Source: Shigella phage JK55 | Sequence record: MK962758 | Direction: 5' to 3' (one strand) | DNA length: 64,000 nucleotides | Shown here: positions 3,271-8,101 of the stretch, one piece after another | How the letters are laid out: every line of letters starts with the position of its first letter | Position numbering within the stretch: the stretch's first letter is position 1 | Made by a program: the position numbers and the translations under genes | The notes under the pieces: model-generated | What the model was told of the DNA's origin: nothing | Seen by the model: the letters and a program-made list of their open reading frames with translations, nothing else | The model's database searches: none

Positions 3271-3344
3271 CTCTGTTTAGCTCAGCTTGGTAGAGCGTTC
3301 CGTTTGGGGCGGTAAGGCCGGAGGTTCAAGTCCTCCAACAGAGA
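3271..3344 (+). tRNA. tRNA-Pro (TGG)
   Basis: acceptor ctctgtt/aacagag, D-stem gctc/gagc, anticodon loop tttgggg, T-arm ggagg-ttcaagt-cctcc, CCA encoded. Confidence 0.8.
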
Positions 3345-3354
3345 CCAAATTAAT

Positions 3355-3429
3355 GTTCCAGTAGACAAAATGGTATAGTCACCACTCTTTCAAAGTGGAT
3401 ATCTGAGGGTTCAAATCCCTTCTGGAACG
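3355..3429 (+). tRNA. tRNA-Glu (TTC)
   Basis: acceptor gttccag/ctggaac, anticodon stem ccact/agtgg, loop ctttcaa, T-loop ttcaaat. Confidence 0.8.
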
Positions 3430-3438
3430 CCAGTTTTG

Positions 3439-3514
3439 ACAGAAGACCAATTACAGCAAACTGAATCTACTCATCTGACACGAAATCGGACAAAGAAGAT
3501 ATTTGGTCTGGTCA
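3439..3514 (+). repeat. inter-tRNA structured element, copy A
   Basis: 5' cagaagaccaattacagcaa ... 3' ttggtctgg; closing helix agaccaa/ttggtct. Confidence 0.5.
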
Positions 3515-3522
3515 TTAAGAAT

Positions 3523-3596
3523 TGCGGGTATAGAGAAAGGGCGTCTCACATGTCTCATTAGCATGGTATCGGCAGGTTCGACTCCTGCACCCGCCT
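3523..3596 (+). tRNA. tRNA-Met or Ile2 (CAT)
   Basis: acceptor tgcgggt/acccgcc with a 1:72 mismatch, anticodon loop ctcatta, T-arm gcagg-ttcgact-cctgc. Confidence 0.6.
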
Positions 3597-3605
3597 CCAA
3601 ATTTA

Positions 3606-3670
3606 CAGAAGACCGTTTACAGCAATACTTATTAAATTTTTAGCGGAAAAATTGAAAGATGCGGTCTGGT
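3606..3670 (+). repeat. inter-tRNA structured element, copy B
   Basis: 5' cagaagaccgtttacagcaa ... 3' gcggtctgg; closing helix agaccg/cggtct; internal hairpin aattttt-agcgg-aaaaatt. Confidence 0.5.
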
Positions 3671-3682
3671 AATACTAAACAT

Positions 3683-3756
3683 GGTTAGGAAGCACATAAG
3701 GTATGTGCGGTCGCCTGTTAAGCGAATGGCACAGGGTTCGAATCCCTGACTAACCG
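3683..3756 (+). tRNA. tRNA-Asn (GTT)
   Basis: acceptor ggttagg/actaacc, D-stem gcac/gtgc, anticodon loop ctgttaa, T-arm caggg-ttcgaat-ccctg. Confidence 0.75.
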
Positions 3757-3768
3757 CAAAATTTAAAT

Positions 3769-3853
3769 GTGTCGTTATCCCGTAGATGGTAGCGGTGGGG
3801 ACTGTAAATCCCTTGTCATTGAGACTCGGTAGGTTCGACTCCTACACGGCACA
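3769..3853 (+). tRNA. tRNA-Tyr (GTA), type II
   Basis: 85 nt, acceptor gtgtcgt/acggcac, anticodon loop ctgtaaa, long variable arm, T-arm gtagg-ttcgact-cctac. Confidence 0.75.
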
Positions 3854-3861
3854 CCAATAAA

Positions 3862-3936
3862 GGTTATGTAGTTTAATTTGGTTAAAATACTCCCCTGTCA
3901 CGGGAGATGATGAGGGTTCAAATCCCTTCGTAACCG
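3862..3936 (+). tRNA. tRNA-Asp (GTC)
   Basis: acceptor ggttatg/cgtaacc, anticodon stem ctccc/gggag, loop ctgtcac. Confidence 0.8.
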
Positions 3937-3999
3937 CCAATTTTGAGAGGGCTATTTAGCCCCTCCCTTAAAGAGTTCTTACGAGTATTCTTTAAAGGA

Positions 4000-4080
4000 G
4001 TAGAAGACCAAATACAGCAAGAATGTATGATATTTTCAAGCCAATTCAATTTTGAAAAAATTTAAAACTTGGTCTGGCTC
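4000..4080 (+). repeat. inter-tRNA structured element, copy C
   Basis: 5' agaagaccaaatacagcaa ... 3' cttggtctgg; closing helix agaccaa/ttggtct; internal hairpin ttttcaa/ttgaaaa. Confidence 0.5.
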
Positions 4081-4090
4081 AACAAATTTA

Positions 4091-4221
4091 CAGAAGACCG
4101 TTTACAGCAAAACTTAAACAATCTATTTCTCGGTAAAGAAAAGGCGAAGGTTCGATTCCTTCACTCGGCAGAGGTCGAGTTGGTGTAATGGTAGCACTTA
4201 AGATGATAAACAACGGTCTGG
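4091..4221 (+). ncRNA. tRNA-like / Y-RNA-like structured element (copy D of inter-tRNA family)
   Basis: 8-bp closing helix agaccgtt/aacggtct encloses a perfect T-arm-like hairpin gaagg-ttcgatt-ccttc (4146-4162) and a D-loop-like agttggtgtaatggtagcac; no acceptor/anticodon pairing found, so not a canonical tRNA. Confidence 0.4.
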
Positions 4222-6089: not shown

Positions 6090-6164
6090 GTTCCAGTATC
6101 CCAATTGGCAGAGGATGCAAGCTCAAACCTTGTATTAGTGACGGTTCGAATCCGTCTTGGAACA
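6090..6164 (+). tRNA. tRNA with anticodon CAA (Leu by anticodon; short variable arm)
   Basis: acceptor gttccag/ttggaac, anticodon stem gcaag/cttgt, loop ctcaaac, T-arm gacgg-ttcgaat-ccgtc, discriminator A. Confidence 0.6.
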
Positions 6165-6186
6165 CCAATTTTAAGAGGCTATTTAG

Positions 6187-6744
6187 ATGAGATATTTGAA
6201 GTATGCTTCATGGATTTTCTTAGCTTTACTAGAACCATTTGCAGCAACCCTAGCAGTCATCTTAGCACCTTTCGTAGTTCCATTCTACAGTGAGAAGAAA
6301 GGGCATCTACCTTTTGGATTCAGATGGATGGAGACCTATGACAACCCGATTGATGGTGATAAAGGCCACGTTGAGAGATGGGCTAAGATTAGAAAGATTG
6401 GCAAGCTCGGTGTTTATATGCAGAGAGTTGGATGGCTCTGGAGAAACAAAGCTTATAACTTCTCTTACCATGTATTAGGAAGAGATGTAAAAGATGTTAC
6501 TAAGTGGAAAGGTAATATCAACGTAAGTTCTGACCCTGAAGATAATCAGACAGGTTATCTCCTAATGTGGAACAACAATGCTTGGGGATTATTCGCTTTT
6601 ATTCCGTCAATTAAAATCTTTGGTAAACAGTTTTACTGGAGAATTTATGTTGGATGGAAACTAAAAAGTGTTGTCCCAGAAGAAAGAGCATTCTCAAGGG
6701 AAAGAGTTATGTTGGCATTCTTTATTCATCCACTGAGAAAGTAA
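6187..6744 (+). CDS. membrane protein embedded in the tRNA array
   Basis: RBS aagagg 8 nt before ATG; hydrophobic N-terminus WIFLALLEPFAATLAVILAPFVVPF; 185 aa. Confidence 0.6.
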   Translation: MRYLKYASWIFLALLEPFAATLAVILAPFVVPFYSEKKGHLPFGFRWMETYDNPIDGDKGHVERWAKIRKIGKLGVYMQRVGWLWRNKAYNFSYHVLGRDVKDVTKWKGNINVSSDPEDNQTGYLLMWNNNAWGLFAFIPSIKIFGKQFYWRIYVGWKLKSVVPEERAFSRERVMLAFFIHPLRK

Positions 6745-6752
6745 AGATTTAA

Positions 6753-6825
6753 AGGGGATTAGTTTACAAGGTTAAAACCTCGGTCTTTGAAATCGAAGAA
6801 GTTGGTTCAATTCCAACATCCCCCG
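6753..6825 (+). tRNA. tRNA-Gln (TTG)
   Basis: acceptor aggggat/atccccc with A1.C72 mismatch, anticodon stem tcggt/atcga, loop ctttgaa, T-arm gttgg-ttcaatt-ccaac. Confidence 0.7.
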
Positions 6826-6830
6826 CCAAT

Positions 6831-6906
6831 GCTCCATTACTCCAATTGGCAGAGAGGCCAGACTTAAAATCTGTGTTATGTATCGGTTCGAATCCGATAT
6901 GGAGTA
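6831..6906 (+). tRNA. tRNA with anticodon TAA (Leu by anticodon; short variable arm)
   Basis: acceptor gctccat/atggagt, anticodon stem caga/tctg, loop cttaaaa, T-arm atcgg-ttcgaat-ccgat, discriminator A. Confidence 0.6.
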
Positions 6907-6914
6907 CCAAATTT

Positions 6915-6987
6915 AGCGGTATAGCATAACTGGCAATGCAGCAGTCTCTGAAGCTGTCTTATTAAGGTTCAAATCCTTATGCCGCTG
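6915..6987 (+). tRNA. tRNA-Gln (CTG)
   Basis: acceptor agcggta/tgccgct, anticodon loop ctctgaa, T-arm taagg-ttcaaat-cctta. Confidence 0.7.
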
Positions 6988-7021
6988 CCACTTCTAAGGG
7001 TTCTTACGAGAGTCCTTAAAT

Positions 7022-7094
7022 GTGGCCTTATCATAAATGGTAATGACCCATGCTGTGAACATGGTCTATACGGGTTCAAATCCCGTAGGTCACC
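7022..7094 (+). tRNA. tRNA-His (GTG)
   Basis: acceptor gtggcct/aggtcac, anticodon stem ccatg/catgg, loop ctgtgaa, T-arm acggg-ttcaaat-cccgt. Confidence 0.75.
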
Positions 7095-7102
7095 CCAATT
7101 TA

Positions 7103-7177
7103 TAGTCCAAGTAGCTTATATGGTTAAAGCGCGTGTCTGAAAAACATGAGAAGAGGGTTCGAATCCCACTGGACTAC
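7103..7177 (+). tRNA. tRNA-Phe (GAA)
   Basis: perfect acceptor tagtcca/tggacta, anticodon loop ctgaaaa, T-loop ttcgaat. Confidence 0.75.
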
Positions 7178-7195
7178 CAATTTCAAAGGTGCTTA

Positions 7196-7930
7196 ATGAA
7201 AGAGATGACAGAACAAGGTAAGGAGATTTTTAATCTCTTAAAAACCGGTAAAGGGTTTTCTAACCCACTTATTACTGGTGCAGCAGTTCTCGGTGGAACC
7301 GTAGCTGCTTCTACATCACTTGTAAGCTCTATTAGTTCTGTAACAGACCCTACAATGCAGGAGAAACTTGTTGCTGCTGGACTTACAACAGTCCTTCTAA
7401 ACAGCTTTACAACAAGCCTTACAAGCACTACAGCAACTACTAAAACTCTGACAGACTACGGTCAAAAGTCTATTGATGAGTTTTCATCACGTATGCAGGT
7501 AGCAAAGGGGTATTCCAATGTTATGGGTGCAGCAGGAGAGCAAGTTGGTTGTACACCATTCAGTGGTATCATGGGTGTTGCTACAGAGTATGGTCAAAAA
7601 GCTATTAACATGATGAACAGTACACTAGATAGTGTTAATGGTGTGTTAAGTGACTTACAAGATGCTATTGATAAGGGTCTTGATACTGTTTCTGATTTAG
7701 CTAATCAGGCTGTTAGTAAGATTAATGAAGGTATTTCAAAGATTACAGCTTATGCAGATGAAGTTGTGCAGATGATTGAAGAAGAAGCTTCCCTTATTGC
7801 AGAGTACCTTAAAACGAATATCAATGGGTTCTTAGCAGGTATCTTACCAGACTGGTTTGATGATGCCTGTAAAACTGGTGTGATTGACACTATTGCAACA
7901 CCAGAAATGAAGAGCGCATTACAGAAATAA
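7196..7930 (+). CDS. hypothetical protein embedded in the tRNA array (Ser/Thr-rich N-terminal half, helical C-terminal half)
   Basis: ORF-track start 7133 lies in the tRNA-Phe anticodon loop; ATG at 7196 follows tRNA-Phe and an aaaggtg RBS. Confidence 0.55.
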   Translation: MKEMTEQGKEIFNLLKTGKGFSNPLITGAAVLGGTVAASTSLVSSISSVTDPTMQEKLVAAGLTTVLLNSFTTSLTSTTATTKTLTDYGQKSIDEFSSRMQVAKGYSNVMGAAGEQVGCTPFSGIMGVATEYGQKAINMMNSTLDSVNGVLSDLQDAIDKGLDTVSDLANQAVSKINEGISKITAYADEVVQMIEEEASLIAEYLKTNINGFLAGILPDWFDDACKTGVIDTIATPEMKSALQK

Positions 7931-7931
7931 T

Positions 7932-8021
7932 GGAAGATTAACCCTAAAAGGTAAGGGAGCAGTTTGCTAAACTGCCAGTAGCTGAGAAATCGGTGTACCA
8001 GTTCAAGTCTGGTATCTTCCT
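7932..8021 (+). tRNA. tRNA-Ser (GCT), type II
   Basis: 90 nt, perfect acceptor ggaagat/atcttcc, anticodon stem gcagt/actgc, loop ttgctaa, long variable arm, T-arm accag-ttcaagt-ctggt. Confidence 0.75.
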
Positions 8022-8028
8022 CCAATTT

Positions 8029-8101
8029 GAATCCGTGACAGAAATGGATATGTGCCTGTCTGCAAAACAGGTTTATAAGGGTTCGAGTCCCTTCGGATTC
8101 T
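8029..8101 (+). tRNA. tRNA-Cys (GCA)
   Basis: perfect acceptor gaatccg/cggattc, anticodon stem cctgt/acagg, loop ctgcaaa, T-arm aaggg-ttcgagt-ccctt. Confidence 0.8.

Follow-up and report, generated by a model that had tools for sequence, protein, structure and literature searches.

A predicted complete decoding set with short-arm leucine tRNAs and an insertion-bearing tRNA-Trp, accompanied by Y-like and tmRNA-like RNAs, in the tRNA array of Shigella phage JK55

Introduction

The tRNA array of Shigella phage JK55 includes several members that depart from the textbook cloverleaf, and raises the question of whether these are working tRNAs, decaying genes or RNAs with another task. The window analysed here is a stretch of 64,000 nucleotides of this phage (sequence record MK962758), in which a first-pass annotation, made from the sequence alone, had folded about 26 tRNA genes at 3271-8101, including three with leucine anticodons and short variable arms and a gene of unusual shape at 5071-5150. 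The region 3200-8200 is 97.6% identical over 5 kb to Escherichia phage vB_EcoM-VpaE1 and matches 355 phage records, nearly all from Felix O1-like phages (Felixounavirus and other Ounavirinae) in which the tRNA array is annotated; judging by these matches, it is the tRNA gene cluster of a Felix O1-like phage (Felixounavirus, Ounavirinae). The array as such is already known, since hundreds of Felixounavirus records annotate it at the same place. The best explanation of its composition, to which we give a probability of about 0.75, is a complete decoding set in which the short-arm leucine tRNAs and an insertion-bearing tRNA-Trp are working tRNAs.

Results

Composition of the array and codon usage

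ARAGORN called 25 tRNA genes between 3271 and 8104, all on the plus strand (as are all features described below unless stated otherwise) and with exactly the anticodons of the first-pass annotation; the 26th member is a conserved cloverleaf at 5071-5153. The array starts where it had been placed, and its end is corrected to 8104, the last position of the last gene. The Rfam tRNA model gave 22 of the 25 ARAGORN genes at least its gathering score; this score was also attained by Ser-TGA, to which the tRNA-Sec model gives a higher score than the tRNA model, tRNA-Tyr matched only the tRNA-Sec model, below threshold, and the Met gene at 3523 had no Rfam tRNA match even at E<=5. The CCA end is encoded in 24 of the 26 genes; Asn (ending at 3757) terminates in GC followed by aaaa and Ser-TGA (5256) in GCC followed by t, so that both would need the host CCA-adding enzyme.

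Codon usage was derived from 40 long open reading frames (ORFs) of the window (14,785 codons), and was compared to E. coli frequencies. The GC content of the phage is 39% and A/U-ending codons predominate: AGA makes up 39% of the Arg codons, about 10 times its share in E. coli, and the shares of CUA (2.9-fold), ACA (2.8-fold), CCA (2.6-fold), UCA (2.3-fold), GUA (2.1-fold), UUA and GCA (2.0-fold each) are also raised. The codons read by the three Leu tRNAs (CUA, UUA and UUG) account for 52% of the phage Leu codons, compared to 15% for CUG, the dominant codon of the host. Codons with an exactly matching phage tRNA were enriched compared to the remaining codons (Mann-Whitney p=0.016), and since the codons matched by phage tRNAs are over-represented, the adaptation to phage codon usage proposed in the first-pass annotation is supported. 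Felixounavirus phages REP5-12 infect the serT/serU-deleted strain Syn61-delta-3 via a viral tRNA-Ser(UGA) (PMC13596443, PMC12269064); this rescue indicates that the operon is expressed and that at least one of its members is functional in vivo.

Leucine tRNAs with short variable arms

The three genes with leucine anticodons, called by ARAGORN and verified by comparison, are Leu-TAG (5512-5589; 78 nt including CCA), Leu-CAA (6090-6167; 78 nt) and Leu-TAA (6831-6909; 79 nt), whose variable regions measure 4, 5 and 7 nt, respectively. The short arms seen in the hand-made folds were thus recovered by software, which assigned the same anticodons and no type II structure; leuW, leuX and leuZ of E. 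coli, taken as the reference, measure 85-87 nt and have the long variable arm. All three phage genes form a canonical cloverleaf (7-bp acceptor stem, D arm, 5-6 bp anticodon stem with a 7-nt loop, T arm with a GTTCRANYC-type loop, discriminator base and CCA) scoring 44-47.5 bits with the Rfam tRNA model (gathering score 29), and none has the variable-arm stem-loop of more than 10 nt that characterises bacterial type II tRNAs.

Short-arm Leu genes were present in every Ounavirinae locus fetched (Felixounavirus, Mooglevirus, Suspvirus, Erwinia Kolesnikvirus and two Pectobacterium phages), and include an AAG isoacceptor in an Erwinia phage and two unrelated Leu-TAG lineages. Since they were found in every genus sampled, the short arm is no accident of one isolate. 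An alignment of ten distinct short-arm sequences revealed compensatory changes on both sides in 17 of the 20 consensus pairs. The T5-like phage rokbiter carries Leu genes of 84-86 nt and a normal Trp gene, so the short-arm Leu and the insertion-bearing Trp are a lineage trait.

One locus was found in both forms: Leu-TAA of Pectobacterium phage Wc4-1 is an 87-nt long-arm gene (L006:5785-5871), and that of its relative Arno162, at the same place, a 77-nt short-arm gene (L003:5809-5885). Their acceptor stems are identical and their bodies differ, which indicates that long- and short-arm forms have been exchanged within the lineage.

The Tyr and both Ser tRNAs of the array retain long arms, of which TyrRS and SerRS make use. 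Leucyl-tRNA synthetase (LeuRS) of E. coli recognises A73, U8:A14, A15:U48 and the placement of G18G19 (PMC6614811). A73 and U48 occur in all three phage genes, the last variable nucleotide being T in each; Leu-CAA (D loop CAATTGGCAGA) and Leu-TAA contain the whole identity set, including U8, A14, A15 and a 3-bp D stem with an 11-nt D loop, and in Leu-TAG A73 and U48 are combined with a 9-nt D loop, AAUUGGUAA. The leucine-type D arm combines a 3-bp stem with CAAUUGGCAGA, compared to AAAUUGGUAGA in E. coli leuW. The short-arm genes would be descendants of ordinary long-arm tRNA-Leu, which lost the arm where the synthetase does not need it; bacterial LeuRS relies on A73 and the tertiary core and not on the arm, and since all those elements are kept, the loss would be tolerated. 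Charging by E. coli LeuRS is predicted from these nucleotides.

Short-arm tRNA-Leu with a leucine anticodon and a short variable region, as in the phage, is known from Streptomyces coelicolor and animal mitochondria, and in S. coelicolor it occurs alongside a bacterial-type LeuRS (PMC6614811). The phage differs in that all its Leu isoacceptors are short-arm and have an E. coli-type D arm and A73, a base that is no identity element in S. coelicolor (PMC6614811). A literature search gave no relevant description of short-arm tRNA-Leu in phages.

A tRNA-Trp-like gene missed by standard gene finders

The 26th gene (5071-5153) is composed of an acceptor stem (5071-5078/5142-5149), an invariant linker (5079-5087), a D stem (5088-5090/5099-5101), an anticodon stem (5103-5107/5117-5121) with anticodon CCA at 5111-5113, a T stem (5127-5130/5138-5141), G73 (5150) and an encoded CCA (5151-5153). 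It is called neither by default ARAGORN nor by the Rfam tRNA model, its best Rfam match being tRNA-Sec (23 bits, E=0.37), and it is annotated in none of 60 records sampled from the 235 that contain it, among them that of Sf17, whose tRNAs came from tRNAscan-SE. The first-pass annotation was right in considering this gene odd and in describing its anticodon arm, a 5-bp stem closing a 9-nt loop or, equivalently, a C.A mismatch at 31:39 (C.C in Pectobacterium phages). Its boundaries are extended by the CCA end from 5150 to 5153, the anticodon CCA (Trp) is added, and the supposed enlarged D region is a 9-10 nt linker between acceptor and D stems, not a large D loop.

The cloverleaf was evaluated in an alignment of nine distinct sequences from four phage groups. 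In the four-helix structure 98.9% of the cells pair, and 8 of the 20 pairs, spread over all four helices, show compensatory changes; the observed covariation score was reached by none of 500 shuffles, and slid controls yielded no such pairs. The acceptor stem has 7 bp plus a stacked G8:C65 pair. The 9-nt linker AUGUUAAGA is invariant in all nine sequences, and the acceptor-to-D connection of 9-10 nt (GAUGUUAAGA) stands where canonical tRNAs have the 2-nt U8-N9. The D stem has 3 bp (CUC/GAG, with a U:A to A:U change) and the D loop contains GG; the anticodon stem has 5 bp, four of which covary, and closes the 9-nt loop C-CUCCAAA-A in place of a canonical 7-nt loop; the T stem has 4 bp and the loop TTCAACT. 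The motif TCCAA, the anticodon, G73 and the 3' CCA are invariant, and the 1:72 pair is A-U in coliphages, G.U in some sequences and G-C in Pectobacterium phages. A homology-based alternative D stem, GTTA/GAGC with a 14-nt D loop, was rejected: the Mooglevirus and Pectobacterium sequences would keep two of its pairs, and CUC/GAG covaries.

The identity set of E. coli TrpRS consists of the anticodon CCA, G73 and A1-U72, and these nucleotides (C34 C35 A36, G73, A1-U72) are all present at 5071-5153. The 25 called genes cover every amino acid except Trp, and no further Trp gene occurs in any of the phages with the element. The tRNA-Trp of Erwinia Kolesnikvirus is canonical (76 nt), lacks the insertion and has A1-U72, G73 and a C31.C39 mismatch, which indicates that the open 31:39 is ancestral and the linker insertion derived. 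When the linker GATGTTAAGA is swapped for TA, default ARAGORN calls a 75-nt tRNA-Trp, and the flanks of the gene (5' tatagt; 3' CCA followed by aa) are the same as those of neighbouring tRNAs. E. coli trpT shares A1-U72, G73 and an identical inner anticodon loop (CUCCAAA) with the phage gene, which differs from it in the 8-nt acceptor-D insertion, the 3-bp D stem, C31.A39 for U31-A39, the 4-bp T stem and the extra G8:C65 pair stacked on the acceptor. From these comparisons we conclude that 5071-5153 encodes a tRNA-Trp whose position 8-9 linker is enlarged by an invariant 8-nt insertion, and which would still decode UGG. Because standard gene finders miss this conserved gene, Felix O1-like phages are scored as lacking Trp although they probably have the full set. 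A scan of IMG/VR with the 14-mer GGGACGATGTTAAG returned mostly chance matches, and Ounavirinae contigs alone passed the context filter.

Alternatively, the RNA might be a tRNA-shaped accessory (protein-binding or regulatory, or a partner of the tmRNA-like or Y-like RNAs described below) with the linker as its functional site. The linker AUGUUAAGA is indeed its most conserved part and the anticodon loop has 9 nt; the region contains other tRNA mimics, such as Y-like RNA 4, and a tmRNA-like RNA without a tRNA-like domain of its own. We consider this improbable: CCA, G73 and A1-U72 coincide exactly with the identity set of E. coli TrpRS, the gene fills the sole gap in the amino-acid set and is homologous to the canonical tRNA-Trp of Kolesnikvirus, no complement of the linker was found within 3000-8400, and, lacking G3.U70, the RNA cannot take alanine in the manner of tmRNA.

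Selection, decay and nuclease evasion

The remaining irregular tRNAs were as described in the first-pass annotation: the ARAGORN folds have mismatched 1:72 pairs in Met 3523 (T1.C72) and Gln-TTG (A1.C72), and both Lys tRNAs have a T stem, ATGGG/CCCTC, with three clean pairs. Met 3523 (CAT, 3523-3599), a non-canonical tRNA-Met-like gene called by ARAGORN only, also has a 3-nt acceptor-to-D linker and T at position 37; it is kept in all Felixounavirus and Mooglevirus loci examined, and its candidate identities are initiator-like, elongator or Ile2. The tRNA-His (GTG; 7022-7097, or 7021-7097 including position -1) was called by ARAGORN and has C73 and, on inspection of the flank, T instead of G at position -1. 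A tRNA-like gene with a 6-nt anticodon loop, reported by ARAGORN as 'tRNA-?(Lys|Gln)(tt)', was observed in an Erwinia phage (L009:2801-2873).

Several points weigh against a set in which all these members work. The function of the Trp-like RNA on the ribosome is uncertain, because it has no U8-N9 linker, a D stem of 3 bp and a 9-nt anticodon loop, and pair-breaking natural variants of it exist (REP9 at G4:C69, and locus L104 in the T stem). HisRS normally requires G-1, and with a His tRNA lacking it and a pyrimidine at position 37 of Met 3523, not every member need decode efficiently. The short-arm tRNA-Leu(CAA) of S. coelicolor was not charged by E. coli LeuRS, an enzyme described as charging long-arm tRNA-Leu only (PMC6614811). 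The tRNA genes of phage Bas63 are mostly non-essential on laboratory strains (PMC11482910).

Some of these points would also fit a reading of the odd members (short-arm Leu, Trp-like, Met 3523) as decaying pseudogenes no longer under selection: several score low or nil with standard tools, the Bas63 genes are mostly dispensable in the laboratory (PMC11482910) and a few isolates have pair-breaking changes in the Trp-like gene. The Leu cloverleaf is kept across genera by many compensatory changes, the Trp-like gene has 8 covarying pairs and 98.9% of its cells paired, its linker is invariant though the stems changed, which is the opposite of drift, and anticodons, discriminator bases and CCA ends are conserved. 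Decay is largely refuted by this covariation, and we regard it as very improbable.

Another possibility is that the unusual shapes chiefly evade tRNA-attacking enzymes of the host or of competitors, the array providing nuclease-proof replacements and not codon-usage supplements; the lost long arm, the open 31:39 or the linker insertion would each remove a recognition feature. The open 31:39 is common to the canonical Erwinia-phage tRNA-Trp and the insertion form, and is thus an old, conserved trait; moreover, all 20 amino acids are covered, beyond the need set by codon bias. To our knowledge no defence recognises the variable arm of tRNA-Leu, or tRNA-Trp, in enterobacteria. The anticodon loop of the phage Lys-UUU, CTTTTAA, matches the loop of the host tRNA targeted by PrrC, so that there is no obvious evasive change in it. 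Escape of phage tRNAs from tRNA-targeting defences by anticodon-loop changes has been reported (van den Berg 2023, as cited in PMC11482910; discussed also in PMC13596443), and resistance of the phage tRNAs to anticodon nucleases may be suggested by analogy. Given the strong fit to codon usage, evasion as the chief purpose seems rather unlikely compared to a working decoding set, though the two ideas are not exclusive.

Y-like RNAs beside a Ro60-like gene

The array lies between the terminase genes and a gene encoding a Ro60-like RNA-binding protein of 471 aa (1690-3105; Pfam DUF2828, E=7.6e-29; DUF7788, E=2.3e-43), directly upstream of it. This ORF has the same position and length as gp130 of Bas63, and its homologue is annotated as 'RNA-binding protein, vWA + DUF2828' in the Mordin record and likewise as 'RNA-binding protein' in that of REP9. 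A sequence search of the protein against solved structures gave no match at E<=1. According to a preprint, Bas63 gp130 is structurally Ro60-like and counters the ppl defence system, and some annotated tRNAs were guessed to be possible Y RNAs (PMC11482910).

Four unannotated copies of an RNA element were found in the spacers of the array: three short forms without a tRNA-like domain, Y-like RNA 1 (3435-3515; shared motif, z-score -2.15), Y-like RNA 2 (3601-3673; shared motif and fold) and Y-like RNA 3 (3996-4081; shared motif and fold), and a YrlA-like tRNA mimic with a terminal stem, Y-like RNA 4 (4086-4225; minimum free energy and consensus folds). All share the terminal motif AGAAGACCnnTTACAGCAA ... 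GGTCTGG and consist of a terminal stem and an internal loop, and the terminal stems covary between copies (TGAC/GTCA, TTAC/GTAA, GAGC/GCTC). A tRNA-like domain closed by the terminal stem was found in Y-like RNA 4 only, as a permuted module with a T arm (4146-4162; GAAGGTTCGATTCCTTC), a closed acceptor-like hairpin (4163-4180) and a D-arm-like element (4181-4198); in relatives the acceptor-like hairpin occurs in three sequence versions that all pair, with compensatory changes in three pairs.

Bacterial YrlA Y RNAs are encoded beside Ro60 and have the 5' motif GNCGAAN0-1G (PMC4201824). Their arrangement resembles that of the phage: a YrlA gene is expected within 4 kb of a Ro60 gene and on the same strand, and the phage RNAs (3435-4225) follow the Ro60-like ORF, which ends at 3105, within about 1 kb on the same strand. 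YrlA, like Y-like RNA 4, has a terminal stem and a permuted module of T arm, closed acceptor stem and D arm, and the shorter siblings beside Y-like RNA 4 recall YrlB beside YrlA. Differences from YrlA/Rsr are that the phage partner matches DUF2828/DUF7788 and not the TROVE model, and that four copies lie inside a tRNA array. The motif GNCGAAN0-1G is absent from the phage RNAs, which have AGAAGACCnnUUACAGCAA in its place, and they have no Rfam Y-RNA match at E<=5; for these two reasons they are called Y-like and not members of the family. By analogy with YrlA they are candidate partners of the Ro60-like protein, the gp130 orthologue.

The 95-nt spacer between tRNA-Thr and tRNA-Val (5919-6013) has a long closed fold (-30.7 kcal/mol) and a motif, GAAGACCG, resembling the Y-like RNAs.

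A tmRNA-like RNA with a conserved tag frame

The spacer between tRNA-Ile and tRNA-Arg contains a near-consensus sigma-70 promoter (4620-4648; TTGACA-17-TATAGT, 11 of 12 consensus positions), which keeps its place throughout Ounavirinae with varying -10 hexamers (TATAGT, TAAGAT, TAATCT) and is followed by a tmRNA-like RNA at about 4655-4851, identified by its tag frame, covariance and conservation. Its parts are the tag (4698-4727), the stops (4728-4733), a hairpin (4746-4764), a pseudoknot candidate (4779-4812) and a terminal hairpin (4813-4847). The frame from 4698 reads GCA AAC GAC AAT GTT TTT CTG GCA GTA GCT TGA TAG, that is, ANDNVFLAVA followed by two stops.

The conserved block was found by blastn in 627 phage records, always unannotated, from unrelated groups that include Ounavirinae, Kuttervirus, Gamaleyavirus, T5-like phages, Klebsiella, Salmonella and Aeromonas siphophages and the lambdoid HK633. 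It is also present in 135 of 5,426 complete E. coli genomes searched; in the one prophage inspected, a lambdoid one, it is flanked, as in phage HK633, by the Q antiterminator and the holin gene. The copies compared were those of loci L136-L142, L009:5066-5240, L143:2501-2673 and the window. The tags of nine sequences are ANDNVFLAVA, ANDAQFLAVA, ANDNTFLAVA, ANEEMYLAVA, ANEEVYLAVA, ANDDVVLMAA and ANDDVILMAA. Codons 1, 2, 3 and 10 vary at the third position only (codon 10 is GCT, GCC, GCG or GCA) and the stop codon, though it may be TGA, TAA or TAG, keeps its position, which argues that the frame is selected as a peptide. Seven of the nine sequences have an in-frame stop 5-9 codons upstream and no start codon between, so ordinary initiation cannot enter the frame. 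The tag stop lies inside a helix, and after it come a hairpin that covaries and the pseudoknot candidate.

The likeness to SsrA extends to a 10-codon frame that begins with GCA without a start codon after an A-rich upstream tract, a hydrophobic Ala-rich C terminus (LAVA/LMAA in the phages) before one or two tandem stops, and a stop in a helix followed by a hairpin and a pseudoknot (a candidate in the phages); the E. coli tag is ANDENYALAA, with two stops, compared to ANDNVFLAVA in JK55. Matches to tmRNA covariance models were found in every copy examined, all below threshold (tmRNA_permuted 20-31 bits, gathering 47; beta_tmRNA 15-17, gathering 84; tmRNA 11-16, gathering 47), and ARAGORN reports the tag only at a lowered threshold ('tmRNAp 4647-4928'). 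The phage RNA differs from SsrA in apparently starting about 40 nt before the tag and in its length of about 170-200 nt in Ounavirinae. An acceptor stem, T arm, G3.U70 and ACCA end were found neither in the window copy nor in HK633; as the tRNA-like domain is the defining feature of tmRNA, the RNA fails membership of that family. The promoter puts its 5' end about 5 nt before GUUUUCG and leaves no room for a 5' acceptor strand; the sequence ahead is not conserved.

Three alternative assignments were rejected. An acceptor stem formed by the 5' end (ACCCTTAG) with downstream TAAGGG or the 3' strand of tRNA-Arg, the pairing implied by the low-threshold ARAGORN call, relies on 5' bases that are not conserved; in relatives the bases ahead of the block are aatcttag, aaccttag and ttaccgtag, lying between the -10 box and the likely start site. 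An AUG-initiated ORF in the +1 frame (MQTTMFFWQ) is conserved neither in length nor in sequence, and its second codon positions coincide with the variable sites. The minus-strand ORF of 46 aa at 4674-4814, annotated as 'hypothetical protein' in Bas63 and others, has no Pfam match, the conservation fits the plus-strand tag, and it is probably spurious. No description of such a tmRNA-like phage RNA was found in a literature search.

Further elements were observed around the copies in other phages. In siphophages and lambdoid phages (L137, L139, L140, L142), repeated long hairpins, CACAACAGGTAAGAGCA ... TGCTCTTTCCGTTGTG, whose apical inserts vary, lie beside the tmRNA-like RNA, downstream of the block and, in L139, upstream too. 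Uncalled tRNA-like minihelices, with acceptor stem, T arm and NCCA and without normal D or anticodon arms, lie downstream of the RNA in St11Ph5 (L138, ~905-975) and Cba120 (L136, ~755-825).

Other features of the array

Two sigma-70-like promoters (3124-3152 and 3215-3244; each 10 of 12 consensus positions, by consensus match only) precede the first tRNA. The following genes were called by ARAGORN and matched by Rfam: Pro (TGG, 3271-3347; 57.7 bits), Glu (TTC, 3355-3432), Asp (GTC, 3862-3939), Met (CAT, 4451-4527), Ile (GAT, 4530-4604), Arg (TCT, 4852-4928), Gly (TCC, 5761-5835), Thr (TGT, 5842-5918), Val (TAC, 6014-6088), Gln (CTG, 6915-6990), Phe (GAA, 7104-7179), the type II Ser (GCT, 7932-8024) and Cys (GCA, 8029-8104). 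Those listed from ARAGORN are Asn (GTT, 3683-3757; CCA incompletely encoded), Tyr (GTA, 3769-3856; long variable arm kept with a 3-bp stem), Lys (TTT, 4371-4446), the type II Ser (TGA, 5167-5256), Lys (CTT, 5597-5672), Ala (TGC, 5679-5754; with G3.U70) and Gln (TTG, 6753-6828; G73). Two protein genes lie within the array, with Pfam matches to DUF7338 (6187-6744) and DUF7217 (7196-7930; 'membrane protein' in related records).

Related stable hairpins with the core AAGGGyTCTTACGAGAGTCCTTAAA (3963-4000, 4813-4847, 5426-5505 and 6995-7018) stand directly before the first tRNA or RNA gene after every long gap, and may be processing or transcription signals.

Discussion

The cluster would be transcribed early by host RNA polymerase from the sigma-70-type promoters, host RNase P and 3' exonucleases would release 26 tRNAs, 24 of them with encoded CCA, and host synthetases, including LeuRS and TrpRS, would charge them for use on the ribosome, with at least one decoder for every amino acid. 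The set would be weighted to A/U-ending codons, which are common in the phage and poorly decoded by E. coli. The same transcription unit would also carry accessories of RNA quality control: the Y-like RNAs with the Ro60-like protein, and the tmRNA-like tag-coding RNA. The tRNA clusters of T4, T5 and Felix O1 likewise consist of tandem same-strand tRNA genes with short spacers, host-type promoters, encoded CCA ends and phage-codon-biased anticodons, with small stable RNAs and small ORFs among the tRNAs; in a T5-like array the Leu genes have long arms and the Trp gene is canonical, whereas the present array has short-arm Leu genes throughout and a Trp gene hidden from gene finders by its insertion.

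The short-arm Leu and insertion-bearing Trp genes are new, conserved variants on an otherwise ordinary, already annotated array. Bacterial tRNA-Leu is type II according to the textbooks, a rule contradicted by an enterobacterial phage subfamily that reads leucine with short-arm tRNAs, and these genes conflict with the published statement that E. coli LeuRS charges long-arm substrates only. They offer a natural, ready-made test of LeuRS requirements, and bear on recoding work that uses phage Leu tRNAs.

Most of the novel content of 3271-8104 is in the spacers between the tRNAs and not in the tRNAs, and the Y-like and tmRNA-like RNAs may matter more than the tRNA oddities. A tentative, wider reading, which we hold at somewhat less than even odds, is that the cluster is a translation and RNA-surveillance toolkit, which joins a 20-amino-acid set, with LeuRS-charged short-arm Leu and a tRNA-Trp of new structure, to a new tmRNA-derived family with a selected tag and without a tRNA-like domain, in at least 627 phage records. 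For gp130, the anti-ppl Ro60-like protein of Bas63, the Y-like RNAs are concrete partner candidates, and these are located in unannotated spacers, not in annotated tRNAs. The tmRNA-like RNA is widespread and unannotated and would open a new angle on how phages handle ribosome rescue and protein tagging: if the tmRNA-derived family is real, phages would feed their own tag template into host ribosome rescue, or redirect it.

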